DNA of 64,000 bases from a virus (IMGVR_UViG_3300023174_006137:95492-159491); one strand, 5' to 3'; shown: positions 18,027 through 43,903, numbered from the stretch's first letter. The notes: a model not told the origin generated them from the sequence alone. A program made the numbers and translations.

Positions 18027-18099
18027 TAGTTCCAACGAGATTCGAACTCGTATCATAATTTTAGGAGAATTATACCTTATCCTGTTAGGCTATGGAACC
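18027..18099 (-). tRNA. tRNA-Arg(CCU)
   Basis: TAATT-CT CCT AA-AATTA. Confidence 0.85.
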
Positions 18100-18105
18100 A
18101 TTTTG

Positions 18106-18191
18106 TACCGCTAGCAGGACTCGAACCTGCACTATCTTTACAGAAAACGGATTATGAGTCCGTCACAATTACCACATCTGCTCATAGCGGC
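18106..18191 (-). tRNA. tRNA-Met/Ile2(CAU), long variable region
   Basis: ACGGA-CT CAT AA-TCCGT; cognate leader has internal ATG codons, favouring Met. Confidence 0.75.
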
Positions 18192-18197
18192 ATATTT

Positions 18198-18476
18198 TTA
18201 TACTCTTTTACTTCTCCATTTAATAAACTTTTTCACATCAGGATGTTCTAAAAGTTTTTCCTTTGTATTATATGTTAAGCCCATTTCTTTTTCAGTTATG
18301 AACCGATGTATTTGCCCATGACAATAAAATTTACATATCCAAATACCATGATTTTTCAAATAATCTTTATCATAATTCTTTTTGAAGAACTTATTTGAAT
18401 GCAAAGTCCTTGGAATTAAATGATGAAAATTTAAATAATCATTTGTTGAGCCACACAATTCACATTTATCTATCAT
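18198..18476 (-). CDS. Small HNH-type nuclease-like protein
   Basis: CELCG..L.FHHLIP...C..CH.QIH. Confidence 0.7.
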   Translation of the reverse strand: MIDKCELCGSTNDYLNFHHLIPRTLHSNKFFKKNYDKDYLKNHGIWICKFYCHGQIHRFITEKEMGLTYNTKEKLLEHPDVKKFIKWRSKRV

Positions 18477-18660
18477 AATATATCATAATAATACCAAGTA
18501 TTATCATATTTTTCATTAACAATTTTTGTTATTTCATCTTTTTCCAATTCTTCATTAATAAAAAATGATTCATTTTTCAAATATTCTAAATCAAAATAAA
18601 CTACTATTTCAATCATAATTTTTTTTTTATTTTAATCAATATCTATACCTTTTTGAATTA

Positions 18661-18694
18661 CTAACTCCTGCGTATACCAATTCCGCCATATGAT
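18661..18694 (-). pseudogene. tRNA 5'-half remnant (Leu-like D-arm)
   Basis: TGGCGGAATTGGTATACGC with no 3' half. Confidence 0.45.
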
Positions 18695-18699
18695 AATCG

Positions 18700-18772
18700 T
18701 AGCTCTGATGGGAGTCGAACCCACACATTTCCGAGTTTGAATCGGTTGCCTCGCCAGTTGGGCTACAGAGCC
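18700..18772 (-). tRNA. tRNA-Leu(CAA), short variable loop
   Basis: CCGA-TT CAA AC-TCGG; A73; no extra arm. Confidence 0.75.
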
Positions 18773-18778
18773 ATTTTG

Positions 18779-18860
18779 TGCAGAAGAAGGGAGTCGAACC
18801 CTCACACCTTTCGGCACAGCAACCTCAATGCTGCGTGTTTACCAATTACACCACTTCTGC
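18779..18860 (-). tRNA. tRNA-Leu(GAG)
   Basis: CAGCA-TT GAG GT-TGCTG; class II arm GCC GAAA GGT. Confidence 0.9.
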
Positions 18861-18866
18861 AATTTG

Positions 18867-18942
18867 TAGCACTCCTGGGATTTGAACCCAGAACTCTCAG
18901 GTTCTAAAGCTGAGTCCTCTGCTCTTGTTGGGATAGAGTGCC
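18867..18942 (-). tRNA. tRNA-Leu(UAG), short variable loop
   Basis: TCAGC-TT TAG AA-CCTGA with C31xC39 mismatch; A73. Confidence 0.65.
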
Positions 18943-18947
18943 ATAAT

Positions 18948-18977
18948 AAAAAAATCCCGTCAAATTGACGGGATTTT
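18948..18977 (-). terminator. Attenuator terminator of the Leu/Met/Arg tRNA operon
   Basis: AAAATCCCGTCAA-T-TTGACGGGA-T7. Confidence 0.88.
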
Positions 18978-18999
18978 AAATAATCTTAAAAATAAGAAT

Positions 19000-19068
19000 T
19001 TACATAAGAATCCCGTCCAATGTTTCCATTAGATTAAGCAAATTCATATTTAGATTCCTATTTCTCAT
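19000..19068 (-). promoter_or_regulatory. Leader peptide MRNRNLNMNLLNLMETLDGILM (Leu/Met/Arg attenuator)
   Basis: Codons AGG, CTA, ATG, TTG, CTT, CTA, ATG; GACGGGATT is complementary to terminator AATCCCGTC. Confidence 0.88.
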
Positions 19069-19100
19069 ATTATTATATATTAATTTTTTATTTCTTTTTA

Positions 19101-19131
19101 CAAAAGTAAGAAAAAATTTTTATTTTACAAA
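19101..19131 (-). promoter_or_regulatory. Bacteroidota sigma70-type promoter of tRNA operon 2
   Basis: TTTG ... TACTTTTG. Confidence 0.7.
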
Positions 19132-19160
19132 TTTTTTTTAAAATTTTTTTCTTGTGGTAA

Positions 19161-19421
19161 TTAACTAAATGTTATTTGATCATAATCATACCAATCATTT
19201 TTAGTATAGTCCCAATGTCTAAAATCATAAAAACTGATATGAAAATATACTAATTTTAATAACTCTATGCGAAATTCAACACCAGCATGATCACATTTAG
19301 AACGTGACTGCAATGAAATTACAAACCAATTGGCTAGGTCATTTAAGGTTAATTGTATTTCTATACCTTTATGTAAAGTTATTTGTTTAAAAAATAAAAA
19401 GGTTTTACTAAATTTTTTCAT
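19161..19421 (-). CDS. Hypothetical phage protein
   Basis: 86 aa; DHAG..F.....L....I.FYD.RHWD pattern. Confidence 0.6.
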   Translation of the reverse strand: MKKFSKTFLFFKQITLHKGIEIQLTLNDLANWFVISLQSRSKCDHAGVEFRIELLKLVYFHISFYDFRHWDYTKNDWYDYDQITFS

Positions 19422-19456
19422 GTAGAATTATTTTTTCTTATATATAAATTTTTTTG

Positions 19457-19545
19457 AGTGCAAAACAGGATTCGAACCTGTGATGTTGGAATTTACCAAG
19501 ACACTTTTGCAGAGTGCCGCTTTCGACCACTTAGACTACTTGCAC
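19457..19545 (-). tRNA. tRNA-Cys(GCA), long variable arm
   Basis: GCACT-CT GCA AA-AGTGT; U73. Confidence 0.8.
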
Positions 19546-19552
19546 AAATTAG

Positions 19553-19625
19553 AGGTGCTGATAAGAATTGAACTTATGTATTAGATTTTGCAGATCTACG
19601 CCTCAAACCGCTCGGCCACAGCACC
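19553..19625 (-). tRNA. tRNA-Cys(GCA)
   Basis: TAGAT-CT GCA AA-ATCTA; U73. Confidence 0.88.
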
Positions 19626-19636
19626 ATTAAATTAAG

Positions 19637-19709
19637 AGCTAAAGAACGGATTCGAACCGATATCATCTTTCATACCAAGAAAGTACCTAAACCATTCAGT
19701 CACTTCAGC
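19637..19709 (-). tRNA. tRNA-Thr(GGU)
   Basis: CTTTC-TT GGT AT-GAAAG. Confidence 0.85.
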
Positions 19710-19715
19710 ATTAAG

Positions 19716-19789
19716 AGCTAAGGAAGGGATTCAAACCCTCATATTCTTCATTACAAGTGAAGCGCCTAATTCAGTTCAGCCACCTTAGC
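19716..19789 (-). tRNA. tRNA-Thr(UGU)
   Basis: CTTCA-CT TGT AA-TGAAG. Confidence 0.85.
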
Positions 19790-19796
19790 ATTTTTG

Positions 19797-19869
19797 TTGT
19801 CCTGGTGGGTAACGATCCCACTGCCTCGATCTTATCAGGATCGCCATCTAACCATTGATATACAGGACA
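19797..19869 (-). tRNA. tRNA-Ile(GAU)
   Basis: CGATC-CT GAT AA-GATCG; T-loop ATCGTTA. Confidence 0.82.
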
Positions 19870-19879
19870 ATTTTACTTG

Positions 19880-19952
19880 TTGGATTGATCGGTTACGATC
19901 CGACTCTCTACACGATATCAGCGTGTTGCTTTCCCGATTAAGCTACAATCCA
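19880..19952 (-). tRNA. tRNA-Ile(GAU)
   Basis: ACACG-CT GAT AT-CGTGT; T-loop ATCGTAA. Confidence 0.82.
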
Positions 19953-19957
19953 AATTG

Positions 19958-20031
19958 CGGGAGTAGTAGGACTCGAACCTACCACCATTCGATTAACAGT
20001 CGAATGCTCTAACCAACTGAGCTATACTCCC
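19958..20031 (-). tRNA. tRNA-Asn(GUU)
   Basis: TTCGA-CT GTT AA-TCGAA; G73. Confidence 0.92.
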
Positions 20032-20037
20032 AATTTG

Positions 20038-20110
20038 TATTCTTGATCGGTTACGATCCGATTACCTCCACCATGTCACAGTGGCGCTCTCCCAATTGAG
20101 CTACAAGAAC
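20038..20110 (-). tRNA. tRNA-Val(GAC)
   Basis: CCACT-GT GAC AT-GGTGG; T-loop ATCGTAA. Confidence 0.82.
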
Positions 20111-20115
20111 ATTTG

Positions 20116-20187
20116 CTGATGAGGAGAATTACGATATCTCGACTCTCGCCTTAACAGGGCGACACTCTGCCTCTGAGTTACTCACCA
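20116..20187 (-). tRNA. tRNA-Asn(GUU)
   Basis: TCGCC-CT GTT AA-GGCGA; G73; T-loop ATCGTAA. Confidence 0.8.
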
Positions 20188-20194
20188 ATTTTTG

Positions 20195-20281
20195 TGATCC
20201 TAACAGGATTCGAACCTGTGTTAACATTTACTGCCTCAGGCTTGTAAAACCTGCGCTCTAAACCAACTGAGCTATAGGATC
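20195..20281 (-). tRNA. tRNA-Val(UAC), long variable region
   Basis: CAGGT-TT TAC AA-GCCTG. Confidence 0.82.
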
Positions 20282-20287
20282 AGTTTG

Positions 20288-20361
20288 TAGTTCCAGCGGG
20301 ATTCAAACCCAGCATGAAGGCTTTAGAAGAGCCTCGTCCTATTCAGTTAAACGATGGAACC
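20288..20361 (-). tRNA. tRNA-Arg(UCU)
   Basis: AGGCT-CT TCT AA-AGCCT. Confidence 0.85.
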
Positions 20362-20366
20362 ATTTG

Positions 20367-20439
20367 TCGGAGCGCCGGGAGTCGAACCCGATTTAAGTGT
20401 GTATAAGACACCTGTGCTATACCGTTCTACTACACTCCG
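20367..20439 (-). tRNA. tRNA-Ile(UAU)
   Basis: GGTGT-CT TAT AC-ACACT; C1-G72 acceptor. Confidence 0.78.
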
Positions 20440-20445
20440 TTATTG

Positions 20446-20532
20446 TGGCTCAGGTCGGGGTCGAACCGACACGGGCGTTGCGGCCCACGGGATTTTAAGT
20501 CCCGCATGTATTACCAGTTTCATCACTGAGCC
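20446..20532 (-). tRNA. tRNA-Leu(UAA)
   Basis: CGGGA-CT TAA AA-TCCCG; class II arm. Confidence 0.9.
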
Positions 20533-20545
20533 ATTTTATTTACTT

Positions 20546-20580
20546 AAAAAAAAAATCTCAAACTTTTGAGTTTGAGATTA
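20546..20580 (-). terminator. Attenuator terminator of the 13-tRNA operon
   Basis: AATCTCAAACT-CAAA-AGTTTGAGA followed by a long T run. Confidence 0.88.
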
Positions 20581-20602
20581 AATCCAAATATAAAATATTT
20601 TA

Positions 20603-20704
20603 TTACACCTGTCGATTTAATCCCATACCAACTCTAATCACACATAACGTATTGTTATTTATGATTAAATTATTATTAATGGTATTTCTACAAATGTTTT
20701 TCAT
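20603..20704 (-). promoter_or_regulatory. Leader peptide MKNICRNTINNNLIINNNTLCVIRVGMGLNRQV (N/I/C/R/T/L/V attenuator)
   Basis: 23 consecutive codons drawn only from the operon's amino acids; GAGTT..TGGGATTA is complementary to terminator TAATCTCA-AACTC. Confidence 0.88.
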
Positions 20705-20791: not shown

Positions 20792-20822
20792 CAAAGATAC
20801 GCAAAAGTTTTAAAATAGCAAA
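20792..20822 (-). promoter_or_regulatory. Bacteroidota sigma70-type promoter of tRNA operon 3
   Basis: TTTG ... TATCTTTG. Confidence 0.75.
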
Positions 20823-21469: not shown

Positions 21470-22210
21470 TTAATTTAATTCTCTAAATTCATTTATATTT
21501 AATAAATAATGATTACAATAACCATTCATAGTTATTTCCGATGCATGGTAATGTCCATAAACATGATATTTAATCCAATTTCCATTTGATTGTAAAATGT
21601 TAAACATTTCAGTCATATCATCTCTTTCTTTTTTTAAATCAGCATACAATTCTTTATCGGAATAGGCAAAATCATCAACAAATTCACCAAATCCTTTCCG
21701 ATTATCTGGATAACACCATTCAGGTGCGGTATGTGATACAACTACATCAACACCAGTTATATCTTTTAACTTTTCTCTATCTAAAACAAATACTTCATTT
21801 TCCCACCATGATTTTTGACTTGAACCATTATGTGAATTTAATATATCTCTATTAATCCTATATCGTCTATCAATAGATACGGCACCACCAACAAATAAAT
21901 GCTTTTTACCATCTATTTCCATAGTAGTATAATCAGGAACTAATTTTAGATTAGAATAAATATGATTTCCTAAAAAATAATATGGCGAATCATGGTTCCC
22001 TCTGCAAGCTATTAGAATCAAGTTTTTTGTGGCACAAAATTTATTTAAATCTTCTAAAGTTTGTAAATCATATTTATTATTAAATCCAATTCCAAAATCT
22101 CCAACTTGGATAATATAAGTAACTTCTTCGTTGTCACCTAATTTATATCTATCAATCAGAGATTTAATTGTTTTCCATGCGCCGTGTATGTCTCCTAAGT
22201 AAATAGTCAT
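21470..22210 (-). CDS. Calcineurin-like metallophosphoesterase
   Basis: GDIHG, QVGDFG, RGNHD, SHTAP, GHYH; start moved to MTIYLGD. Confidence 0.88.
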   Translation of the reverse strand: MTIYLGDIHGAWKTIKSLIDRYKLGDNEEVTYIIQVGDFGIGFNNKYDLQTLEDLNKFCATKNLILIACRGNHDSPYYFLGNHIYSNLKLVPDYTTMEIDGKKHLFVGGAVSIDRRYRINRDILNSHNGSSQKSWWENEVFVLDREKLKDITGVDVVVSHTAPEWCYPDNRKGFGEFVDDFAYSDKELYADLKKERDDMTEMFNILQSNGNWIKYHVYGHYHASEITMNGYCNHYLLNINEFRELN

Positions 22211-22284
22211 TATAATTATTTTTACAAAAATACGAAAAATAATTGAAGGGACAAAACTATTTTTTATATATATTAGAGTAATAT

Positions 22285-23088
22285 ATGACAAACATAGATA
22301 TAATAGATAAAATAAAAAAGGAATACCCAAAAAATGGACTACAAAAAACTGCCAATATAATTGGTATTAGTTTATATACTTTAAAGAAAATAATTAAAAA
22401 AAATAATATTATTTTAGGAGAGAAGGAAAGAAGAGTGGAATTTTCCAATTTTGAAAAAATAAATAAAAAAGAAGTTGCTTATTTTTTAGGTTTCTTTTGG
22501 TCTGATGGCGCAATAAGCAGAGATGAAATTTGTATAGAGATAAAATATGATGATAGTAATTCTATTTTAGATATATTAAATAAATTCGGTAATTGGAGAG
22601 TTAACAATAGAGTTAGAAAACTCAAAGGCAAAGAATATAAACAATCTTGCATAAGAATTAATGATAAGAAAATTAAAAATTTTCTATTAGAAAATGATTA
22701 TGGCAATAAATCAACAACAACTCCAACAAAAATATTATCTCTTATGCCAAATGATTTACAGCCTTATTTTTTCAGGGGGCTTATAGATGGAGATGGTTGT
22801 TTTTGTTCTAAAAACAGAAGTTATTTTTCTATTACAGGAACAATTAATCAAGATTGGCATGAAATAGAAAATTTATTTAATTATTTAAATATTAATTATA
22901 AATTAACATTAAAAGAACGGAAAACAGGTAATTCAAGTTATGTAGTTATATCTAATAAAAAAGATATAACTACATTGGGAAATTATATTTATGGAGAAAA
23001 TTATGACAATATTGGACTTTATAGAAAATATAAAATATATATGGAGATAAAAAACAAACCAATATCAAAATATTCAAAATATAAATGA
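22285..23088 (+). CDS. Free-standing LAGLIDADG homing endonuclease
   Basis: YFLGFFWSDG and FFRGLIDGDG motifs. Confidence 0.85.
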   Translation: MTNIDIIDKIKKEYPKNGLQKTANIIGISLYTLKKIIKKNNIILGEKERRVEFSNFEKINKKEVAYFLGFFWSDGAISRDEICIEIKYDDSNSILDILNKFGNWRVNNRVRKLKGKEYKQSCIRINDKKIKNFLLENDYGNKSTTTPTKILSLMPNDLQPYFFRGLIDGDGCFCSKNRSYFSITGTINQDWHEIENLFNYLNINYKLTLKERKTGNSSYVVISNKKDITTLGNYIYGENYDNIGLYRKYKIYMEIKNKPISKYSKYK

Positions 23089-24023: not shown

Positions 24024-24050
24024 AAAGTCCAACTAATTAGTTGGACTTTC
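24024..24050. terminator. Bidirectional terminator
   Basis: AAAGTCCAACTAA/TTAGTTGGACTTT palindrome. Confidence 0.65.
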
Positions 24051-24953
24051 TAATAATGGTAAAATGGTTTCACACCATTTTTTAAATTCATCAAAATCAT
24101 TCTTTTTATATAAATCTATCATTCCTAATAGAGGATTACCATAGTGAGATATAGTATTTGGTTCTGCACCAAAAAGTATTACATCTTCTCTATTTTTTAT
24201 AGTCATTAATGGTGGTAAATCAAGCCTATCAAGTGTCCATCTTTCAATAACCAAATTAGGATTTTGTCTAGCTTGATGTTTTGCTGGAAGTTTTGCCAAT
24301 TCTTCAGTAGTAAATGGTTTTAAAACTCTTTTTCTCTGAATATATGTGCCTCTTTTGAAGAAAGCAGGATAATCATTCCAATTTACACCTTTTTGAAAAA
24401 GCATTTCTTGTTTATCTGAACCCGATTTTCCGTGTAATTCGTTATGAGAATAATAATGTTGTGCTGCCATGCTAATAGAATTTTTAGTAGCATCTATTTC
24501 ACGCCACAAAAAGGTATTAGCAGCTTCTTGAATTGTTGGAACATTAAATACTCTACAATCTAATCTTGGCATCAAATGTGTTTTTTCAGGTAGATATTTA
24601 GGCAATTCTCTATTAAAAAATACTGAAGCCATACCAGCTAAATCAGATATCATTTTAAATAATCTACCATCAAAATATATTTTTGATTCATATGAATCTG
24701 AATACCAAACTAAAGTTATTTCATCACTTTGAGTATAACCACAATTTGCATTAGTTTCTTTAACTAAATACTTAGTTGTTTCAACCATTAAATTTGATAA
24801 CCTCTCATCATAGGGCCTTTTTAGTCCTTTTGTAAATTTAGAAAATCCTTTACCATCTAATCTGGCTATTACAGGAATTCTTGGAAGCATACGAATGCCA
24901 CAAGTAGCATCTTCATACATTTTTATTCTATCCCCTAAAGTATCTTTTATCAT
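24033..24953 (-). CDS. thg1: Thg1-like tRNA(His) guanylyltransferase / 3'-5' polymerase
   Basis: ARLDGKGFSKFT, YTQSDEITL, DCRVF, WRE.DATKNSI, KQEML, WND.P..FKRG. Confidence 0.92.
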   Translation of the reverse strand: MIKDTLGDRIKMYEDATCGIRMLPRIPVIARLDGKGFSKFTKGLKRPYDERLSNLMVETTKYLVKETNANCGYTQSDEITLVWYSDSYESKIYFDGRLFKMISDLAGMASVFFNRELPKYLPEKTHLMPRLDCRVFNVPTIQEAANTFLWREIDATKNSISMAAQHYYSHNELHGKSGSDKQEMLFQKGVNWNDYPAFFKRGTYIQRKRVLKPFTTEELAKLPAKHQARQNPNLVIERWTLDRLDLPPLMTIKNREDVILFGAEPNTISHYGNPLLGMIDLYKKNDFDEFKKWCETILPLLESPTN

Positions 24954-25069
24954 GTTATGAATTTTTACAAAAATACGAAAAAAGAATTGAAAAAGCAAAA
25001 ATTTTTCTGACTTTTTCCAATATAGGTATTGGTAAAATTAATATATATTTTATTAAAAACAATACAAAT

Positions 25070-27712: not shown

Positions 27713-28477
27713 TTAATCAATCCAATTTTCAATTTTTTCTTCAATAATTTTAAATAATAACTTTTTTGCCTTTTTATGTTTCATATCAGAAATAGTATGA
27801 GCTAAATGAAATTTATCATTTGAACCAGTTTTTAACTTAGCTTTTTCATAAGAAAGTTTATTTTTAGAAAAATAATCATCAAAATTTTCAAAAATAGTTT
27901 TTGTTTTAAGATTATATGCTTTATCTGATTCTAAATCAAAAATATCTAATTCAATTCCCGATTCTAAATCAATTTCTTCATAATCAGTATCATTTAAAAT
28001 AGATTCAATTTTTTTATCACGATTTATTGCTTTAGCTAAATCTTTATATTTTTCCAAATCTTCAACACAAGGTTGCCAAACATATTCATTTTTATAATAC
28101 AATGTCCATTCTTCAGAATATACATCACCATTTATATCATTCGTCCAAATTTTATCTATTAAACGACAACATAAACGCATCCATTTTATTTGTTCCGGCA
28201 AATCAACAGGATAATATTTACCAACTTTGCATTTTCTTTCAAATTCATTAGCAGTTTTTTCTAATTTAAAACGCCAAATTTTTATTATATCATCATAACC
28301 AAAATCAGTATCTTTCCAAACAATTTTGGCCCATTTAAATATATTTGAAATGCCTTTTTTAAAATTATAATAAGGAATTTCAAATCTATATGTTTTAGTA
28401 TAAGACCACCAACTCTCTAATCTTTCAATTAGAGTATCTTTTTGTCTTTTCTTTTTATAAATATCTGTTAAATTCAT
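27713..28477 (-). CDS. Hypothetical phage protein
   Basis: GI.NI.KW...VWKD.DF pattern; internal RDKKIESILND. Confidence 0.6.
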   Translation of the reverse strand: MNLTDIYKKKRQKDTLIERLESWWSYTKTYRFEIPYYNFKKGISNIFKWAKIVWKDTDFGYDDIIKIWRFKLEKTANEFERKCKVGKYYPVDLPEQIKWMRLCCRLIDKIWTNDINGDVYSEEWTLYYKNEYVWQPCVEDLEKYKDLAKAINRDKKIESILNDTDYEEIDLESGIELDIFDLESDKAYNLKTKTIFENFDDYFSKNKLSYEKAKLKTGSNDKFHLAHTISDMKHKKAKKLLFKIIEEKIENWID

Positions 28478-29544
28478 ATTATTTTGGCAAAATTACGCTT
28501 TCCAACTTTTATTATATCACCAGTTTTTATTTCAAATTCTTCAGTAACTTTTTCGCCATTTACTTTCACAGCATTAGATTTCAATAATCTTCTAGCATCT
28601 GATTTAGAACCCTTAATTATTTTACTTACTATTTCAACAAGATTTCCAACTGATAATTCAATCATATCTTCAGGAATTTGCTTACTTTGTATTACTGATT
28701 CAAAATGAATTTTAGCCATTTCTGCTAATTCTTCATTCCATATTTCAGTTGTTATTTGAAAAGCCAATTCTTTCTTTTGCTCCATTGGATGCTTAATTTC
28801 AATTTTATCAAAGAAAATTGGCAACCATTCATTCATAGTTTCATCAGAAATAGACATACATTTTCCAAAAACATCTTCTGGAGAATCATTTAAATTAATA
28901 GTATTGTTAAATGATTTTGACATTTTTCTACCATCTAATCCATTAATTACAGGTGTCATTATACAAACTTGTGGTTCAATACCATTAATAGTTTGCAACT
29001 CACGTCCTTTAATCATATTAAGTAATTGATCTTGACCACCGATTTCAAAATTAGATTTCAATACTACACTATCTATACCTTGTAATAAGGGATATACTAA
29101 TTCTTGCATTGATATTCCTGAACCATTTTGTATTCGATTTTGAAAAGAATCACGATTTAATAAATCTTGAACCGTAAATTTTGATAAAATAGACATTATA
29201 TCAACTAAAGTCATTTTATCAAACCATTCATTATTAAAATGAATAGTTATATCATCGCCTAGTATTCTTTTTATTTGTGGTAAAATGCAACTTGTATTTT
29301 CTAATACAACTTCTTTTTCCAACATAGGCCTAGTAGAATCTCTACCTGTAGCATCACCAATTGTAGAAGTAAATGTACCTAATACAATATGTATATCACA
29401 ACCATCATTCTTCAACAATTTAACAATTCTTAAAGGCAATAAATGACCTAAATGCAGCGAAGTCCCAGAAGGATCAATACCAAATTTAACTATACCTTTC
29501 TTTTGAAAAAGATTTGTATTTTCGGGAAATGTAGAAAATTTCAT
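28474..29544 (-). CDS. tyrS: Tyrosyl-tRNA synthetase
   Basis: GIDPSG.SLHLGH, YPLLQG.D, GGQDQ..N, KMSKS, C-terminal S4 domain. Confidence 0.93.
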   Translation of the reverse strand: MKFSTFPENTNLFQKKGIVKFGIDPSGTSLHLGHLLPLRIVKLLKNDGCDIHIVLGTFTSTIGDATGRDSTRPMLEKEVVLENTSCILPQIKRILGDDITIHFNNEWFDKMTLVDIMSILSKFTVQDLLNRDSFQNRIQNGSGISMQELVYPLLQGIDSVVLKSNFEIGGQDQLLNMIKGRELQTINGIEPQVCIMTPVINGLDGRKMSKSFNNTINLNDSPEDVFGKCMSISDETMNEWLPIFFDKIEIKHPMEQKKELAFQITTEIWNEELAEMAKIHFESVIQSKQIPEDMIELSVGNLVEIVSKIIKGSKSDARRLLKSNAVKVNGEKVTEEFEIKTGDIIKVGKRNFAKII

Positions 29545-29590
29545 AATAAGCAAAGATAAGAAAAAAAATTTAAGAAAACAAATAAAATTT

Positions 29591-30154
29591 TTAACTTATT
29601 TTACTTTTAAGAAAATCATCAAATTTACTAACCAATGATATTGATTTAGCTAAAATATCCTTTTTTTCTTCGTCGAATTTATATTTACCAAAATAACTAT
29701 TTTGAAAATGTAATCTTAATAAATTAACATCATCTAAAATTGAATTATTTGGATATTTTTTATCATATGAATTTTTAATAAAATGATACATCATATTACT
29801 TGGCTCAGTAAAAATACCTTCAATATCACAATTTTTTAATCTATCATATGCTTTTCCATATTCAGTTTTTTTACCAAAAATAGAATTAACTATTGTTTTA
29901 AAACTTTCATTATATGATTTAATTGTAAAATATTTTTTAAAAGTATTTACACCACAAGTTTGACTATATTCGTCATCATGATATATTTTATAATAATTTT
30001 TACCTTTTGTATCAGTTTTTAATTGATATTTATATTCTTCACCACTATTAAATCCTTCTAAGCCTGAAACGCCAAGTGGTTCATCTTTACAAACACAAAT
30101 ACCTTCTTCTTTTATTTCATTAGCTTCGTTAAAAGCAATCCAATTTTTAATCAT
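29591..30154 (-). CDS. Hypothetical late protein
   Basis: MIKNWIAFNE N-terminus. Confidence 0.55.
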   Translation of the reverse strand: MIKNWIAFNEANEIKEEGICVCKDEPLGVSGLEGFNSGEEYKYQLKTDTKGKNYYKIYHDDEYSQTCGVNTFKKYFTIKSYNESFKTIVNSIFGKKTEYGKAYDRLKNCDIEGIFTEPSNMMYHFIKNSYDKKYPNNSILDDVNLLRLHFQNSYFGKYKFDEEKKDILAKSISLVSKFDDFLKSKIS

Positions 30155-31378: not shown

Positions 31379-31379
31379 A

Positions 31380-31485: not shown

Positions 31486-31505
31486 ATTTTTTATATTTTT
31501 GATTT

Positions 31506-32053: not shown

Positions 32054-32126
32054 TGGAGAATGACGGTTACGATCCGACTACTTAGGTTTGCAAAACCCAT
32101 GTTTTACCAATTACAACTAATTCCCC
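32054..32126 (-). tRNA. tRNA-Ala(UGC)
   Basis: G3:U70; TGGGT-TT TGC AA-ACCTA; T-loop ATCGTAA. Confidence 0.85.
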
Positions 32127-32197
32127 TCTTAATGAAATGTCAACTGTTCCGGTTGGTGTTTTAAATCTTTCAATCCGTGGTTGACACTTCATTTTTG

Positions 32198-32271
32198 AGT
32201 CGATAACCGGGTTCGAACCGGCTCTATTCCAGCATGGCAAGCTGGTGCACCACCAATTATGCGTTATCGAC
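32198..32271 (-). tRNA. tRNA-Gly(GCC)
   Basis: CCAGC-TT GCC AT-GCTGG; U73. Confidence 0.85.
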
Positions 32272-32913
32272 TTTTTTAATAATTCTACCTTTTATCCATC
32301 CCATACTCAAATATTGATTTAAATCCATTTTTTTAATTTTTTTATTTCCAAATTCAAAATGATATATCCAACAAGTTCCATACTGTGAGTTTTTTTCTCC
32401 TTTTTGATTTTCTGAATTTTTTTCTCCTATTTTGATTTTTGTCTCTTCTTTATGCTTTTTGCCAGTCCAATTAGGAGGATTCTTCAATACACCTAATTCT
32501 CTGAGTTTTTTATTCTGTATAATCATTCTTTCTTTATTTCTTTTTATAAATTCAGGATTATTCCAGTTAATTTTATTCATAGAGATAGCCGCCTTTTTAT
32601 TTTTTTCTTTTCTTAAAATAATATTATTATTTATAGATTCAAAACAATCGCCACCTATAATTATGTTATAAACATCAGTTCTTTTTATAAACTCCTCATT
32701 AACTATTTCTCTTTCTTTCAAATATGCTTCATTTTCATCAGTAAATATGAATAATATTTCTTTTCTAAAATTTTCTATTCCATATTTTTGTATTGCTCTT
32801 TTTATATATTTTCCACTACCCATATATTCGTCATCTAAATTATTTGTAGAGTGTTTTCCTATATAAAATTTTCCATTTAATATATTTTCTATTTTGTAAA
32901 TTGTATGTAACAT
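32257..32913 (-). CDS. GIY-YIG (Seg-like) homing endonuclease with NUMOD3
   Basis: IYKIEN..NGKFYIGKH, Y.GSG, KYG.ENF..E, G.KH..ETK.KI; stop codon lies inside tRNA-Gly. Confidence 0.88.
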   Translation of the reverse strand: MLHTIYKIENILNGKFYIGKHSTNNLDDEYMGSGKYIKRAIQKYGIENFRKEILFIFTDENEAYLKEREIVNEEFIKRTDVYNIIIGGDCFESINNNIILRKEKNKKAAISMNKINWNNPEFIKRNKERMIIQNKKLRELGVLKNPPNWTGKKHKEETKIKIGEKNSENQKGEKNSQYGTCWIYHFEFGNKKIKKMDLNQYLSMGWIKGRIIKKVDNA

Positions 32914-32965
32914 AATTTTAAACTATTTTATTTATATATAAAATAGTTCGAGTCCTGTTACTCAG

Positions 32966-33036
32966 AGCAGAATGTGGGAATCAAACCCCGTCTCCACGTT
33001 GGAAGCGTGGCACTTTATCATTAAGCTACATTCTGC
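32966..33036 (-). tRNA. tRNA-Gly(UCC)
   Basis: CCACG-CT TCC AA-CGTGG; U73; shortened T-stem. Confidence 0.78.
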
Positions 33037-33042
33037 ATTTCG

Positions 33043-33114
33043 AACTACCGAGCGGTTACGATCCGCCTACTCCGGGGTGAAAACCCAGTATTTTCCCGAT
33101 TAAACTACGGTAGC
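33043..33114 (-). tRNA. tRNA-Glu(UUC)
   Basis: CTGGG-TT TTC AC-CCCGG; T-loop ATCGTAA. Confidence 0.78.
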
Positions 33115-33122
33115 ATTTTTTG

Positions 33123-33193
33123 TAGCACCGAGGGGTTACGATCCCCCGACTGATCCTTGAAAGGGACCCGATTTACCATTAATCTACGGTGCC
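33123..33193 (-). tRNA. tRNA-Glu(UUC)
   Basis: GGTCC-CT TTC AA-GGATC; T-loop ATCGTAA. Confidence 0.82.
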
Positions 33194-33345
33194 ATATCTT
33201 GTATTTTATGTAAGATATAAGTTATTTGCGTTTCATTTATTTGAATTGTACCTCTTAATTTAATCCAAAAAATAGCATTAACAATCACTACAATAAAAGT
33301 TTTTCAATTTCAATCTCAATTTTTCATACATTTTTTTATTTTTAG

Positions 33346-33427
33346 TGGGTTAGGTAGGACTCGAACCTACGAACTCAAACGAGGGCGGATTTACAGTCCG
33401 CTGCAATTGCCACTATGCGACTAACCC
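33346..33427 (-). tRNA. tRNA-Tyr(GUA)
   Basis: GCGGA-CT GTA AA-TCCGC; class II arm. Confidence 0.92.
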
Positions 33428-33435
33428 AATTTTTG

Positions 33436-33528
33436 TGCCTCAGGTAGGACTCGAACCTACTTACTGCGTGCCAATACGACTATTTGTTAAAGCAGACTTG
33501 TTTTACAGACAAGTGCCGTTACTAAGGC
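33436..33528 (-). tRNA. D-armless tRNA-Tyr(GUA)-like RNA with oversized variable arm
   Basis: Acceptor GCCTTAG/CTGAGGC, 8-nt linker, CTTGT-CT GTA AA-ACAAG, ~36-nt extra arm, canonical T-arm. Confidence 0.65.
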
Positions 33529-33593: not shown

Positions 33594-33689
33594 TTAACTA
33601 CATAACTTACCAACCTCTGAGTGTTTACCCTCATAGCCATACGCTCCTTCATAAGCGGCTGTTGTTAATATGTTATTTAAGTTAGTCAT
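33594..33689 (-). promoter_or_regulatory. Leader peptide MTNLNNILTTAAYEGAYGYEGKHSEVGKLCS (A/Y/E/G attenuator)
   Basis: 11 consecutive A/Y/E/G codons; GGTTGG is complementary to terminator CCAACC. Confidence 0.88.
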
Positions 33690-33726: not shown

Positions 33727-33756
33727 CAAAGATACATAAAAGTTTTGAACTACAAA
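33727..33756 (-). promoter_or_regulatory. Bacteroidota sigma70-type promoter of tRNA operon 4
   Basis: TTTG ... TATCTTTG. Confidence 0.75.
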
Positions 33757-40285: not shown

Positions 40286-40630
40286 TTAAAGTCTTTCAGA
40301 TTTTTTATAGGCTAATTCATAACTGGAATTAATCTTTTTATAAAGATTTTCTGCTGTAAATTCCTTTAAATAATCTCCTTTATTCTCAATTATATATTTT
40401 TCTGTATACCCACAATTAAATTGCTCGGCTTTAAAATGACAACCATCATAACAATCACATAGTGTTATGCCATTTTCCTTACAATATCCACCATTTGGCA
40501 TTAACTTTCTATTTGTAATATGATGTGCATCTAGCTTTGCATCCGTTCTGCCACACATAACACATTTAAAATTATCTCTTTCAAATACATCTTTACGAAA
40601 TTTTTCTCTAATTTGTTGTTTTATCTTCAT
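40286..40630 (-). CDS. HNH endonuclease
   Basis: VFERDNFKCVMCG, LDAHHI, NGITLC...CH. Confidence 0.82.
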   Translation of the reverse strand: MKIKQQIREKFRKDVFERDNFKCVMCGRTDAKLDAHHITNRKLMPNGGYCKENGITLCDCYDGCHFKAEQFNCGYTEKYIIENKGDYLKEFTAENLYKKINSSYELAYKKSERL

Positions 40631-40632
40631 AG

Positions 40633-40719
40633 AGGAAAACAGGATAGTCGAAATCCGCCCAACTTAATGGGTTCTCGTTTTCCAAACGAGCGGGGACACC
40701 TTTCCCACCTATACTTTCC
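40633..40719 (-). tRNA. tRNA-Ser(GGA) with non-canonical 8/4 fold
   Basis: Acceptor GGAAAGTA/TGTTTTCC (8 bp), T-stem GGAT/ATCC (4 bp), CTCGT-TT GGA AA-ACGAG, long V-arm. Confidence 0.7.
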
Positions 40720-40724
40720 ATTAG

Positions 40725-40811
40725 TGACTCCAGAAGGATTCGAACCCTCATAAAACATATACTGTCTCCCCGTTCGTAGCGGGGCGTTTTAATCCATTAA
40801 ACTATGGAGCC
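40725..40811 (-). tRNA. tRNA-Arg(ACG), long variable region
   Basis: CCCCG-CT ACG AA-CGGGG. Confidence 0.82.
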
Positions 40812-40818
40812 ATTTTAG

Positions 40819-41053
40819 TATTCAGAACGGGATTCGAACCCGCAAAGATTTCATAAATTATAACTTGGAAACCTGCTTCCTGAGTGTTTCCCAGTGCAAT
40901 CTGTTAACCTTGTGTTATAAACCCTCCACCCATTGGTCTTACAGCGGTTATTCACAACCATTCTTTGAATGCCTTTGGTAGTTAGTTAAAATCCCTCATT
41001 TTATGAGTATCCTTAGTGTTTTGGGACTGTTTTTCCTATTAAACTATCTGAAT
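40819..41053 (-). ncRNA. 235-nt tRNA-framed structured RNA
   Basis: Perfect acceptor ATTCAGA/TCTGAAT-A, D-arm GTTT/AAAC, T-arm GCGGG TTCGAAT CCCGT enclosing ~180 nt of multi-stem sequence. Confidence 0.65.
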
Positions 41054-41058
41054 ATTAG

Positions 41059-41143
41059 CGGTAGATACAGGATTCGAACCTGTGGAGCCCGAAGGCTCGG
41101 CAGTTTAGCAAACTGCTGGTATAGACCACTCACCCAATCTACC
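41059..41143 (-). tRNA. tRNA-Ser(GCU)
   Basis: GCAGT-TT GCT AA-ACTGC; V-arm GAGCC TTCG GGCTC; G73. Confidence 0.92.
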
Positions 41144-41148
41144 AAAAT

Positions 41149-41180
41149 AAAAAAGCCTCAGAAATAAATCCGAGGCTTTT
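41149..41180 (-). terminator. Attenuator terminator of the Ser/Arg operon
   Basis: AAAAGCCTCGGA-TTTATT-TCTGAGGC-T6. Confidence 0.88.
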
Positions 41181-41198
41181 AGTATAGACAATACACTA

Positions 41199-41255
41199 TC
41201 ATCTTCGGATTTCGAAGTTAAAACTACTGCGACTAGAAGAAAATATTGTGTTCAT
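41199..41255 (-). promoter_or_regulatory. Leader peptide MNTIFSSSRSSFNFEIRR (Ser/Arg attenuator)
   Basis: TCT TCT AGT CGC AGT AGT; AAATCCGA is complementary to terminator TCGGATTT. Confidence 0.88.
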
Positions 41256-41299
41256 ATACTATATATTAGTTTTTTATTTTTTGTTTTTATTTATTTTTA

Positions 41300-41329
41300 C
41301 AAAAGTAATATTTTTTTTGATTTTGCAAA
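41300..41329 (-). promoter_or_regulatory. Bacteroidota sigma70-type promoter of tRNA operon 5
   Basis: TTTG ... TACTTTTG. Confidence 0.7.
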
Positions 41330-41330
41330 A

Positions 41331-41861
41331 TTATCCAAACCTACTTAAAATAAAATCATCATCGTCATCATCGTCATCATCATTATCACTTTCGTCGATA
41401 ATATAATTTTCAATTTCCTTTTTTAATATATTACATTTTTCATAATTCTCGTTATATAATGCTTTAGCATATTCAGAATACAAAATTAAAAGATCGTCAT
41501 CATATTTACACAATTTGGAAATCTCATCATATAATTCATAATCCTTCATTTGTTCTGTATTATCATGTTCCAATTCATAATTATAAGTCATATTTTCTAT
41601 TTCTTCGTCAGTTTTATTTTCAAAATCTTTATCACGAAACCCTAATGCATATGCAAATTCTTTTATAGTTGGTATATTCTCAATATTTTCTTTTTTTAAT
41701 CTTTCCAAATATCCATCATACATTTGTTTCAAAGTAAATAAATCACCAGTTTTAAGATTTGATTGTTCTAGTTCATATCTTTTAAGAGATAAGTCAACTA
41801 TTTTTTGATTAAAAATAGACTCTTTTAATAAAAATAATTTATAATTGTTAATATATTTCAT
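41331..41861 (-). CDS. Acidic late protein with UVR-like motif and poly-Asp tail
   Basis: MKYINNYKLFLLKE; ALYNENYEKC..LK.EI; poly-D run. Confidence 0.55.
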   Translation of the reverse strand: MKYINNYKLFLLKESIFNQKIVDLSLKRYELEQSNLKTGDLFTLKQMYDGYLERLKKENIENIPTIKEFAYALGFRDKDFENKTDEEIENMTYNYELEHDNTEQMKDYELYDEISKLCKYDDDLLILYSEYAKALYNENYEKCNILKKEIENYIIDESDNDDDDDDDDDFILSRFG

Positions 41862-41952
41862 ATAAGTATATATTTATTTAAAAATATCATAAATATGCAA
41901 GCGTTCTATCCAATCCTTTAAATTATAATATAGATTATTTGTGAGTTCGTTG

Positions 41953-42025
41953 TCCGCCTGCCGGGAATCGAACCCGGCCCCATAGTTTAAAAGACTATTG
42001 CCTACAACCAGTTTGCTACAAGCGG
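41953..42025 (-). tRNA. tRNA-Lys(UUU)
   Basis: ATAGT-CT TTT AA-ACTAT. Confidence 0.85.
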
Positions 42026-42034
42026 TTAAACTTG

Positions 42035-42109
42035 TGTCCCCAGTAGGATTCGAACCTACAACCCGTTGGTTAAAAGCCAACTACTCTAAGCCAATTGAGC
42101 TATGAGGAC
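42035..42109 (-). tRNA. tRNA-Lys(UUU)
   Basis: GTTGG-CT TTT AA-CCAAC. Confidence 0.92.
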
Positions 42110-42196
42110 TAATTTTGTTAAGCACTCACTACTAATTGGTGCTTAACTAACCTGTTTCTGTTTTCGTTTTATTTGTTTCATACAATAATTTTTTTG

Positions 42197-42284
42197 CGGC
42201 AGATTAGAGAGTTCAACTCTAACAACGGATGATTACGTTCTAGCAATTTTCAAGATTGTGTACCTCAGTCAACTGGGATCTGCC
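42197..42284 (-). tRNA. tRNA-Ser(UGA), atypical D/T arms
   Basis: CAAT-CT TGA AA-ATTG; long V-arm; G73. Confidence 0.62.
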
Positions 42285-42291
42285 ATTTCTG

Positions 42292-42375
42292 CGGAAGTTG
42301 ACGGACTCGAACCCTCACAGCTTTTACACCTTCACCGTTTTCAAAACGGCTAACTACTCCTAATTAGGAACTTCC
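42292..42375 (-). tRNA. tRNA-Ser(UGA), atypical D-arm
   Basis: GCCGT-TT TGA AA-ACGGT; long V-arm; G73. Confidence 0.72.
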
Positions 42376-42380
42376 AATTG

Positions 42381-42457
42381 CACGGGTTGTAGGATTTTCA
42401 CCATTTAAACATTAACTTCCTTGCCGGAAGGTGTCTTAAATTTTAGACGAAACCCGT
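42381..42457 (-). pseudogene. Degenerate tRNA-like element overlapping the HNH stop codon
   Basis: Acceptor ACGGGTT/AACCCGT and D-stem GTCT/AGAC present, but 5-nt anticodon loop and broken T-arm. Confidence 0.5.
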
Positions 42458-43315
42458 ATTTTTATATTGTTTTAACCATTTTCTTATTACAGCCTCACTT
42501 ACTCCAAATAATTTACCTGTTCCTGTATTTCCGTTTTCTTTAACAAGTTTCATTAATTCTTCATAAGAAGGTCTATTTTTCACTTTTCTTTGTTTTATAG
42601 AACTACATATTTTGCATAATTTGCTATCTTTTGATATAATTTTACCACAAAAACATTTTTTATGTGTTTTTTCATTTTTATATTCATCTAATTCTTTATC
42701 ATACAATCTTTTAGTTTTATTGCTCCCACAATTAGTTTCCAAGGTAGAATTGCAATTAGGACAAACTATTCTTAAATTTTCAAGACGATTATCATAAGCA
42801 TCACCATTTATATGATCAAGTATATGAACTATTTTAGAATCATTAAACCAATTTTCATCTTGTCCGCATATTTCACAAATTTTATTTTTTATACCTTCTT
42901 TATATAATTTATTTTTTATTACTTTTCTCGAAACAAAAGAATCTTTATTCAGTATATCATCCAAATTTAAAGAATTTTTTGGCTTATTGCCTAACTTAAA
43001 ACCAGATTCAAAATGCTCAATATCTATATTATATAATTTTATATATTTTTTAATTGTTTGAAAATTACCAGAACATCGTGGTGATAAACCTAATTTTATT
43101 ATACATTCTGTATAACTTTTACACTCTTCAACTAATTTTTCAAATTCTTCTTTATTTTCATAAATATATGTTCTTTTTAATTTCAATTTTTTTGCCATTT
43201 CTTGACATGCTCTTTTTGTTCTACCAATCATATTGGCACAATAATCAGCACCCATTTTTGGAAAAAAATCACATAATAACTCTTTTTCTTTTTCTAACCA
43301 TTCATTCGAACTCAT
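42443..43315 (-). CDS. HNH homing endonuclease
   Basis: CEICG..W, LDHINGD..DNRLENLRIVCPNC, C-terminal HTH (GVSE..IRKW). Confidence 0.88.
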   Translation of the reverse strand: MSSNEWLEKEKELLCDFFPKMGADYCANMIGRTKRACQEMAKKLKLKRTYIYENKEEFEKLVEECKSYTECIIKLGLSPRCSGNFQTIKKYIKLYNIDIEHFESGFKLGNKPKNSLNLDDILNKDSFVSRKVIKNKLYKEGIKNKICEICGQDENWFNDSKIVHILDHINGDAYDNRLENLRIVCPNCNSTLETNCGSNKTKRLYDKELDEYKNEKTHKKCFCGKIISKDSKLCKICSSIKQRKVKNRPSYEELMKLVKENGNTGTGKLFGVSEAVIRKWLKQYKNTGFV

Positions 43316-43363
43316 ATTTTTACATTTGTTTAACTTATATATAAAAATATGAGTTCGCCCCTT

Positions 43364-43438
43364 TGGTGGTATCTACAGGTAACGATCCTGACTCTAATGT
43401 GCTTCAAACATTCGCTAATCCATCTCAGCTAAGATACC
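43364..43438 (-). tRNA. tRNA-Phe(GAA), CCA encoded
   Basis: AATGT-TT GAA GC-ACATT; T-loop ATCGTTA. Confidence 0.82.
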
Positions 43439-43444
43439 ATATTG

Positions 43445-43515
43445 CACGAGTTACAGAAATCGAATCCGTTCGACAAGGGTTTTGGAGACCCTCCGGCTAC
43501 CTTAGCCTAACTCGT
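43445..43515 (-). tRNA. tRNA-Trp(CCA)
   Basis: AGGGT-CT CCA AA-ACCCT; G73; compact D-arm. Confidence 0.8.
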
Positions 43516-43521
43516 ATTTAG

Positions 43522-43612
43522 GGCGATATGTGGGATTCAAACCCACGGTGTTTGATACAATCTCATTCAGGGTCACAGCCTGATTCCTTCGTTCACTCGG
43601 ACCAATACCGCC
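43522..43612 (-). tRNA. tRNA-His(GUG), long variable region, G-1 encoded
   Basis: TCAGG-CT GTG AC-CCTGA; G-1:C73. Confidence 0.78.
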
Positions 43613-43676
43613 ATTTTTACACTCTTCACCAGATTAACGGACTGGCTGCCATATAGGAAGTGAGTGTAAAACTCCG

Positions 43677-43750
43677 GGAGTAAGACGGGGATCGAACCCG
43701 CTGCCTCAGGTGCCACAAACCTGCGCTCTACCAAATGAGCTACCTACTCC
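43677..43750 (-). tRNA. tRNA-His(GUG), G-1 encoded
   Basis: CAGGT-TT GTG GC-ACCTG; G-1:C73. Confidence 0.88.
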
Positions 43751-43756
43751 ATATAC

Positions 43757-43788
43757 AAAAAAAGCCGAACTATATAGTTCGGCTTTTT
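43757..43788 (-). terminator. Attenuator terminator of the His/Trp/Phe/Ser/Lys operon
   Basis: AAAAAGCCGAACT-ATAT-AGTTCGGC-T7. Confidence 0.9.
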
Positions 43789-43810
43789 ATTTCTTAAAAC
43801 AATAACTCTT

Positions 43811-43903
43811 TTATGAAGTCTTGTTATTGAAACATAACTCTACCGAACTCTGATTTCTAAACCAGAATTTAAACGAATGTTTATGTGAGCTAAAATGTTT
43901 CAT
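43811..43903 (-). promoter_or_regulatory. Leader peptide MKHFSSHKHSFKFWFRNQSSVELCFNNKTS (K/H/F/S/W attenuator)
   Basis: 14 consecutive K/H/F/S/W codons; AGTTCGGT is complementary to terminator GCCGAACT. Confidence 0.9.

Follow-up and report, generated by a model that had tools for sequence, protein, structure and literature searches.

Why would the tRNA operons of a phage begin with a short open reading frame (ORF) and a terminator, and why would that ORF be written in the very synonymous codons that the tRNAs behind it read? This question is raised by the virus contig IMGVR_UViG_3300023174_006137, a single phage contig of 159,491 bp with a G+C content of 26%, whose last 64 kb (positions 95492-159491; hereafter the window) hold the whole tRNA gene set of the genome, all on the minus strand. 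Six promoter-driven tRNA units carry such leader ORFs, and the match between the synonymous codons of a leader and the isoacceptors of its own unit was confirmed as real and beyond chance. Judging from how these sequences are arranged, we consider it probable that trp/his-type ribosome-mediated transcription attenuators stand before the tRNA operons, with control codons selected to the level of the isoacceptor.

Layout of the leader units

The six units share one layout, in which a promoter is followed by a short leader ORF, a terminator hairpin with a T-run, and the tRNA genes. The first-tier leaders (L1 to L6) are 18-33 codons long and lie 30-90 nucleotides 3' of promoter motifs, five of them directly and leader 6 after an initiator tRNA; a pattern search placed one promoter motif 5' of every first-tier leader. 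This motif is of the Bacteroidota type (TTTG-N17-21-TAnnTTTG), with 19 matches found by the same kind of search against 5.5 expected, an enrichment that points to a putative Bacteroidota host. The terminators of L1, L1b, L2, L3, L4, L5 and L6 have a GC-rich stem of 8-10 bp and then at least six T, directly before the first tRNA. ARAGORN called 39-41 tRNA genes in the window, to which Rfam adds Asp, Ala(UGC), a second Tyr and an intron-bearing Trp. The components of the units are as follows; promoter motifs are from the pattern search, and the tRNAs of units 2, 3 and 5 are from ARAGORN and Rfam.

11774-13322, minus: unit 1 (promoter, L1, Pro and Asp tRNAs, nested Gln leader)
13141-13230, minus: L1, the Pro/Asp/Gln leader
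11774-11821, minus: nested Gln leader inside unit 1, 15 codons, CAA four times
11475-11714 (tRNAs), minus: three Gln UUG and then GlnRS, behind the nested Gln leader
19101-19131, minus: unit 2 promoter motif
19000-19068, minus: leader 2 ORF, 22 codons, MRNRNLNMNLLNLMETLDGILM
18947-18973, minus: unit 2 terminator, 8-bp GC-rich stem and T-run
18026-18942, minus: unit 2 tRNAs Leu UAG, Leu GAG, Leu CAA, two small ORFs, Met CAU, Arg CCU
20792-20822, minus: unit 3 promoter motif
20603-20704, minus: leader 3 ORF, 33 codons, with TTA three times, AGA twice and CGA at codon 31
20547-20577, minus: unit 3 terminator
19456-20532, minus: unit 3, 13 tRNAs (Leu UAA, Ile UAU, Arg UCU, Val UAC, Asn, Val GAC, Asn, two Ile GAU, Thr UGU, Thr GGU, two Cys)
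33727-33756, minus: unit 4 promoter motif
33594-33689, minus: leader 4 ORF, 31 codons, with Ala, Tyr, Glu and Gly control codons
33536-33566, minus: unit 4 terminator
32054-33528, minus: unit 4, two Tyr, two Glu, Gly UCC, a GIY-YIG ORF, Gly GCC, Ala UGC
41300-41329, minus: unit 5 promoter motif
41199-41255, minus: leader 5 ORF, 18 codons, with TCT TCT AGT CGC AGT AGT and then CGA AGA
41148-41176, minus: unit 5 terminator
40632-41143, minus: unit 5, Ser GCU, an interrupted tRNA-like gene (40818-41053), Arg ACG, Ser GGA
44058-44088 and 44142-44172, minus: unit 6 promoters
43952-44024, minus: initiator-like tRNA-Met between the unit 6 promoters and leader 6 (features read from the sequence)
43811-43903, minus: leader 6 ORF, 30 codons, with His, Phe, Trp, Lys and Ser control codons
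43756-43783, minus: unit 6 terminator
41952-43749, minus: unit 6, two His, Trp, Phe, a homing-endonuclease-like ORF, two Ser(UGA)-like tRNAs, a Lys mini-ORF, two Lys UUU
42443-43315, minus: homing-endonuclease-like ORF of unit 6
42291-42375 and 42195-42287, minus: Ser(UGA)-like tRNAs of unit 6 (class-II alignment with a UGA loop)
42143-42181, minus: Lys mini-ORF (L6b) inside unit 6

Codon choice in the leaders of the window

An earlier, sequence-only reading had proposed that leaders and tRNAs match codon by codon where an amino acid has six codons. The leader ORFs, codons and anticodons that it named are all present on the minus strand, and its split of Leu codons holds: leader 2 spells Leu as CTA TTG CTT CTA TTG CTT, without TTA, before tRNAs with UAG, GAG and CAA anticodons, and leader 3 uses TTA only, before Leu UAA. 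The Arg codons are likewise as listed, with AGG in leader 2 (CCU), AGA in leader 3 (UCU) and CGC in leader 5 (ACG). Leader 2 contains one AGA beside its AGG, as well as four internal or terminal ATG codons, and leader 3 further samples Asn, Ile, Cys, Thr and Val codons. For Ser, TCT and AGT occur in leader 5 and TCA and TCG in leader 6 (in order AGC TCA TCG AGT TCG TCA), with the qualification that default ARAGORN misses the two Ser(UGA) genes on which the leader 6 assignment depends. One of them is called at a relaxed threshold and scores 24 bits in Rfam, and in alignment both have the class-II form with UGA in the anticodon loop. Given that relaxed ARAGORN with introns returned many implausible calls, we retained a call only if it was free of introns, lay inside a tRNA cluster and agreed with Rfam or with the alignment.

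These choices were set against the codon usage of 150 long ORFs from the whole 159-kb genome. There, TTA accounts for 67.6% of Leu codons (CTT 12.7%, TTG 12.5%, CTA 5.4%), AGA for 68.5% of Arg codons (AGG 7.3%, CGC 2.2%), and TCT for 34.5% of Ser codons (TCA 32.3%, AGT 19.2%, TCG 5.6%). In every leader, the amino acids carried by its own tRNAs are over-represented, and codons readable by own-unit tRNAs are more numerous than expected (L2, 10 vs 1.0; L5, 7 vs 0.8; L6, 17 vs 5.9; L3, 27 vs 12.9). In leader 2, 10 of the 21 codons are readable by its five tRNA species; with the peptide held fixed, the chance that all five would be represented under genome codon usage is 0.011. By our count, none of the 31 anticodon species is without a readable codon in the leader of its unit. 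An automated tally gives 31/32; its 32nd entry is a heuristic miscall of the second Ser(UGA)-like gene, for which the alignment shows a UGA loop.

Restricting the comparison to synonymous choice gives the same answer. Among the Leu, Arg and Ser codons of leaders 2, 3, 5 and 6, 23/28 are readable by tRNAs of their own unit vs 12.8 expected (P=1.5e-5; standard wobble, Poisson-binomial against genome codon usage). Shuffling synonymous codons between leaders, a control that preserves any leader-wide preference for rare codons, gives P=3.7e-4, and the match stands at 19/22 (P=2.7e-5) without the weakly called Ser(UGA) tRNAs. These tests exclude the four-codon boxes that have only one UNN tRNA (Pro, Ala), as such a tRNA may read all four codons. 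With Watson-Crick decoding only, the excess is weak (12 vs 8.2 expected, P=0.06), and the match, as observed, is to wobble-readable codon sets and not to the perfectly complementary codon. Leu provides an internal control: TTA makes up 0/6 Leu codons in leader 2 and 9/9 in all other leaders (Fisher 2e-4), including all six Leu codons in leaders before units that lack a Leu tRNA. Leader 4 supplies three of these controls, all TTA. The comparison with genome codon usage, which the sequence-only reading had put forward as a possible refutation, left the pattern significant, and the pattern recurs in relatives.

Exceptions are more numerous than that reading had listed. Beside the AGA of leader 2 and the AGC of leader 6 that it named, which both exist, there are four in or after the antiterminator segment, the 3' part of each leader that is complementary to its terminator: CGA at codon 31 of leader 3, CGA and AGA at codons 17-18 of leader 5, and AGT at codon 19 of leader 6. 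These four sit where predicted base-pairing would constrain the sequence, and upstream of the segment the match rises to 18/20 (P=8e-6). For the AGC and AGT of leader 6, a possible partner is Ser GCU in unit 5, which comes next downstream; as a counterpoint, unit 5 has its own promoter motif and would therefore be transcribed separately from unit 6.

Could the match be chance combined with selective reading of one pattern among many in seven short ORFs? The counts are small (28 codons), there are several exceptions, and the data were seen before the hypothesis was framed. Against this stand the P values under both nulls and without the weak Ser(UGA) calls, the recurrence of this partition for Arg, Ile, Gln and Ser in genomes outside the first reading, and the leaders of phage phiCbK described below, which sample both Gln, both Val and all three Leu isoacceptors of their arrays. 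We give the chance explanation very little credence, the least of the three alternatives weighed here.

Relatives, terminator pairing and the proposed switch

We compared the window with three more distant genomes: the IMG/VR contig G001 (385 kb) and the uncultured phages LR745206.1 (W01; 635 kb) and LR756502.1 (W02; 642 kb), to whose GlnRS that of the window is 55-58% identical. Blocks with homologous leaders are shared with these relatives (His/Phe/Trp/Lys, Ser/Arg, Tyr/Glu, Ile/Gly/Ala, Asn/Leu and others, Pro/Asp, and Gln), and GlnRS together with the shared tRNA blocks and leaders indicates that the phage is related to the huge Bacteroidota phages LR745206.1 and LR756502.1. Closer relatives were scarce. 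Megablast of phage GenBank records returned no close relative, and a scan of JGI metagenomes anchored on GlnRS returned almost only bacterial glnS loci; the IMG/VR scan with the same anchor gave one useful relative, G001, which was also the only match to the exact DNA pattern of the Pro/Asp leader. ENA/Logan contigs with closer GlnRS relatives (L102-L108) carry only the Pro/Asp and Gln units, and the Y-family polymerase, used as an anchor, yielded one near-identical Logan contig and one contig without tRNAs. The sequence is present in lake and freshwater metagenome DNA runs, and no RNA run is among the public sequencing runs listed for it.

In the three relatives, Leu UAA, Leu UAG and Arg UCU lie behind a single Asn/Leu/Met/Thr/Val/Ile/Cys/Arg leader that uses TTA and CTA/CTG for Leu and AGA for Arg. 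Leader 2 of the window aligns with the 5' half of this leader and leader 3 with its 3' half. At a conserved AAT-Leu-AAT-ATG position, leader 2 has CTA and 3/3 relatives have TTA; the conserved ACG-TTA-TGT is kept in leader 3. Whichever operon arrangement is ancestral, the synonymous codons appear to follow the tRNAs. The Ser/Arg leaders offer a second case. CGC occurs in their sensing part in 4/4 genomes, although it makes up 0-2% of Arg codons. Ser UGA stands behind this leader in the relatives, where TCA/TCG supply 14/25 Ser codons, and in unit 6 in the window, where leader 5, with no Ser UGA in its unit, has TCA/TCG at 0/5 Ser codons (P=0.03). ATA contributes 9/12 Ile codons in leaders before Ile UAU and 0/6 in leaders before Ile GAU, and CAG contributes 9/32 Gln leader codons on five contigs with tRNA-Gln CUG vs 1/17 on three without.

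A similar arrangement occurs in the cultured and unrelated Caulobacter phage phiCbK (JX100813.1), which has annotated terminators directly before three tRNA blocks and short ORFs before these blocks at 28082-28167, 29541-29770 and 31343-31503. The first two ORFs, one of which is gp083, end beside annotated terminators and the third just before one. The gp083 ORF is rich in Ser, Leu, Pro and Lys and spells Leu as TTG, CTG, CTT and CTC before Leu CAG, CAA and GAG, and another ORF has CAA and CAG, GTG and GTC before Gln UUG/CUG and Val CAC/GAC. Each of these ORFs appears to be written in the codons of the tRNAs that follow, and phiCbK would thus offer the same design in an experimentally tractable phage.

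If the leaders regulate transcription, each should also be able to oppose its own terminator. We folded leaders without the 3' arm of the terminator, or duplexed their 3' parts against terminator 5' arms, across the window and eight genomes or contigs related to it. In 36/36 leaders, a 3' segment is complementary to the 5' arm of the terminator that follows, each time in the last third of the leader (codons 17-22 of leader 2, 24-30 of leader 3 and 18-21 of leader 6). The mean duplex energy is -11.7 kcal/mol for cognate and -7.9 kcal/mol for non-cognate pairs (36 leaders, Mann-Whitney 6e-14), and 7/7 cognate pairs in the window are the best among all window terminators. Homologous attenuators use different paired sequences (for example, leader segment and terminator arm are gagttcgg/ccgaact in the window and gattcga/tcgaatt in W02), so that pairing and not sequence is conserved. 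In MAFFT alignments of the Gln and Pro/Asp attenuators, the hairpin arms fall out of register. The leader/terminator pairing would correspond to the 2:3 versus 3:4 logic of trp-type attenuators.

Two further sequence features of the leaders were observed. The Pro/Asp leader contains a perfect palindrome of 14-16 nucleotides (GAT CAG GAT CCT GAT core; 13170-13185, minus), kept in most relatives examined (homologues in L002, L102, L103, L108, L111 and L112), which may be a pause site or a 1:2-type hairpin. The N-terminal pattern M-K/T-N/T-x-x-N-I (AAC ATA) recurs in many leaders as well.

The same anatomy could be read without any translation, the ORFs being silent, the hairpins ordinary terminators or processing sites, and the codon likeness a product of RNA structure or of descent from tRNA-flanking sequence. 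Bacteroidota mRNAs lack clear Shine-Dalgarno sites, and the exceptions cluster where base-pairing constrains the sequence, as this explanation would have it. A constitutive terminator between a promoter and its only genes, however, would silence them. Moreover, the ORFs, their frame and the position of their stop relative to the antiterminator are kept in genomes with GlnRS only 55-77% identical, the amino-acid enrichment fits the downstream tRNAs in every unit, and several leaders were called as genes by independent gene callers on other assemblies. We consider untranslated ORFs quite improbable.

For ribosome-mediated attenuation, we begin from the observed anatomy, antiterminator complementarity, codon-anticodon match, and conservation and co-variation in relatives, and infer three steps: leader translation, coupling of translation to transcription, and a response to tRNA supply. 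Transcription would start at the Bacteroidota-type promoter, and a ribosome would translate the leader. If all control codons were decoded fast, the ribosome would reach the 3' part of the leader and cover the antiterminator segment, so that the terminator would form and the tRNA genes would stay untranscribed. Were a tRNA species scarce, its codon would be slow and the ribosome would stall upstream; the segment, left free, would pair with the terminator 5' arm, and RNA polymerase would read into the tRNA genes. New tRNAs would then read the stalling codons and lift the stall, giving negative feedback for each isoacceptor set.

What such a switch would sense is a separate matter. The sequence-only reading had taken codon specificity to imply a signal from the tRNA species rather than from the amino acid. 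Codon specificity alone is insufficient for this, because amino-acid attenuators also select among synonymous codons for control: CUA is the choice in the Salmonella leu leader, and charging is selective among isoacceptors (PMC1183508). The part that stands is that a closed loop fits the sensing of tRNA species, and the stronger argument, which we find plausible, is that the regulated genes are the matching tRNAs themselves. The loop closes around isoacceptors because the product of each unit relieves only codons that its own tRNAs read. Sequence does not separate the charging of a tRNA from its abundance, because the ribosome senses charged tRNA.

The attenuators might instead sense amino-acid supply, with synonymous codons chosen for stalling sensitivity and not for a match to downstream tRNAs. 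Classical leaders do show strong synonymous bias, and a CUA-to-CUG swap in the Salmonella leu leader alters its sensitivity (PMC1183508). The leaders studied here favour the rare codons ACC, ACG, GTG, CGC, TCG, GAG and AGG, and GAG appears in Glu leaders independently of a Glu CUC tRNA. A preference for rare codons nevertheless fails for Leu, where leader 3 and four other leaders use only the commonest codon and leader 2 avoids it, and it leaves the common TCT and AGT of leader 5 unexplained. The shuffle that preserves leader-wide codon preference also remains significant, and an extra tRNA would not relieve amino-acid starvation, which would leave the loop without a stable off state. We judge sensing of amino-acid supply unlikely, if the most credible of the three alternatives.

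Several observations weigh against isoacceptor-matched attenuation and temper our confidence in it. In the window, one unmatched codon lies in the sensing part of leader 2 (AGA, codon 2) and another in that of leader 6 (AGC, codon 5), both Ser(UGA) genes in unit 6 are non-canonical, and the hairpin after L6b lacks a T-run. Among the relatives, W01 has one CAG although it lacks tRNA-Gln CUG, and one CTC for which neither a GAG nor an AAG tRNA was called; Lys mini-leaders contain AAA only, even before Lys CUU; and GAG is frequent in Glu leaders with or without Glu CUC. The leaders of the relatives are homologous and not independent samples, so their counts partly reflect shared ancestry; they represent conservation and a few co-variation events rather than independent trials. 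Finally, tRNA calling in these phages is incomplete (Ser GCU, visible by eye, was missed by ARAGORN), and an automated codon test on the relatives ranged from P=2e-5 to not significant according to which weak tRNA calls were admitted. We did not rely on its overall P values and used only the Arg, Ile, Gln and Ser-relocation contrasts.

With these points included, we lean, by a small margin, towards a stronger form of the attenuation model, in which each operon would be an autonomous, isoacceptor-resolved feedback circuit that tops up single tRNA species, leaders would be re-coded synonymously when tRNAs move to another operon, and the initiator tRNA would stay outside the loop. If so, demand could come from AT-rich codon usage that outruns the host pool, or from a host anticodon nuclease that removes a single species. 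The initiator-like tRNA-Met at 43952-44024, recognized by its 1:72 mismatch and by GGG/CCC (three G:C pairs) at the base of the anticodon stem, stands 5' of the unit 6 attenuator and 3' of the promoters. Such a place outside the switch fits, because an elongating ribosome cannot report on an initiator tRNA. An initiator-like tRNA-Met also lies upstream of the Tyr/Glu leader in two relatives (LR745206.1 364870-364942; L019:608-704).

Gene context and known systems

The tRNA operons contain unusual genes. Between Ser GCU and Arg ACG of unit 5, the acceptor, D and T arms of the tRNA-like gene at 40818-41053 (minus) are split by an insertion of ~165 nucleotides; ARAGORN called it Leu(AAG) with a 143-nucleotide intron, a call that we regard as doubtful, and no Rfam intron matched at E<=1. 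Genes of 84-91 nucleotides (the usual length being 72-77) occur among the Gln, Pro, Met, Cys, Val, Arg and His tRNAs, each with a normal-length twin or neighbour, and their length implies putative extra arms or insertions. Homing-endonuclease-like ORFs, recognized by sequence motifs, lie inside the tRNA operons, and relatives of the one in unit 6 show weak Pfam matches to HNH_3. The ORF ending at 11774 continues in frame into the Gln leader (its end being ...KKMKTLTSQQQQLFKPD), which is free-standing in relatives. A family of short tRNA-like genes has a common 5' motif, GAGTTACTTCG, and anticodons that differ among relatives (UAA, CAA, UCU). The genome also encodes a Y-family polymerase; GlnRS, the metallophosphoesterase/RNA-ligase-like protein, the Thg1-like protein and TyrRS, with the full tRNA set, amount to a kit for translation and tRNA repair. 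The relative G001 carries a tRNA with a CUA anticodon, of the amber suppressor type (L020:533-605), which suggests that stop codons are recoded in G001; the genome of the window yielded no suppressor tRNA.

11631-11714, 12992-13077, 18105-18191, 19456-19545, 20194-20281, 40724-40811 and 43521-43611: tRNAs of 84-91 nucleotides
11774-12853, 18198-18476, 32257-32913 and 42443-43315, minus: homing-endonuclease-like ORFs
LR745206.1 388912-388985 (L113/L111), LR756502.1 402464-402537 (L114), L002:1306-1369 and L018:1381-1434: short tRNA-like genes with GAGTTACTTCG
9888-11471: GlnRS
21470-22330: metallophosphoesterase/RNA-ligase-like protein
24033-24998: Thg1-like tRNA-His guanylyltransferase
28474-29553: TyrRS

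Why phages carry tRNAs is debated between codon compensation and escape from tRNA-cleaving defences (PMC10264068, PMC11464382). Full-text searches of the literature found no paper on attenuators before tRNA genes. The contribution of this window is the split of Leu, Arg and Ser isoacceptors among operons within one genome, with relatives supplying re-coding events; the split makes the codon-level claim statistically testable within a single genome and this phage a particularly clean test case. An isoacceptor-level match predicts that depletion of one tRNA species would turn on one operon, and that a synonymous swap would re-address the switch. If confirmed, attenuation could sense tRNA pools rather than amino acids, phage leaders could be read as a record of the tRNAs that matter in infection, and the leaders could provide compact, programmable, codon-specific transcription switches.

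The nearest known systems are the enterobacterial trpL, hisL, leuL, pheL, thrL and ilvGMEDA leaders, in which a short leader enriched in control codons likewise lies between the promoter and the structural genes, and the 3' end of the leader overlaps an antiterminator in competition with an intrinsic terminator, as is predicted here. The use of particular synonymous control codons is shared with leuL (CUA; PMC1183508). The thr and ilv leaders also sense several amino acids; in this phage, one leader samples up to ten anticodon species. Unlike their enterobacterial counterparts, the leaders described here are phage-borne, follow Bacteroidota-type promoters and precede tRNAs and one GlnRS instead of biosynthetic enzymes, and their synonymous choice tracks the downstream isoacceptors and differs between leaders for the same amino acid. 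In Escherichia coli, the pheM leader attenuates an aminoacyl-tRNA synthetase operon, pheST. Like pheM, the leaders here would control translation components, and the Gln leader would gate GlnRS as well, which starts a few bases after the last tRNA-Gln; unlike the tRNA leaders, pheM senses one amino acid and controls a synthetase.

T-box riboswitches resemble the proposed switch in that a particular tRNA species controls termination through codon-anticodon pairing. Their ligand is uncharged tRNA, bound directly and without any need for translation, and they share a conserved T-box motif, whereas the elements described here are multi-codon ORFs. The T-box family (Rfam RF00230) had no match at the gathering threshold in the whole window and none at E<=1 over 40500-44100, nor did these leaders match any other known leader family in Rfam. 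At the level of sequence, the elements appear to have every feature that defines leader-peptide attenuators and none of those that define T-boxes.

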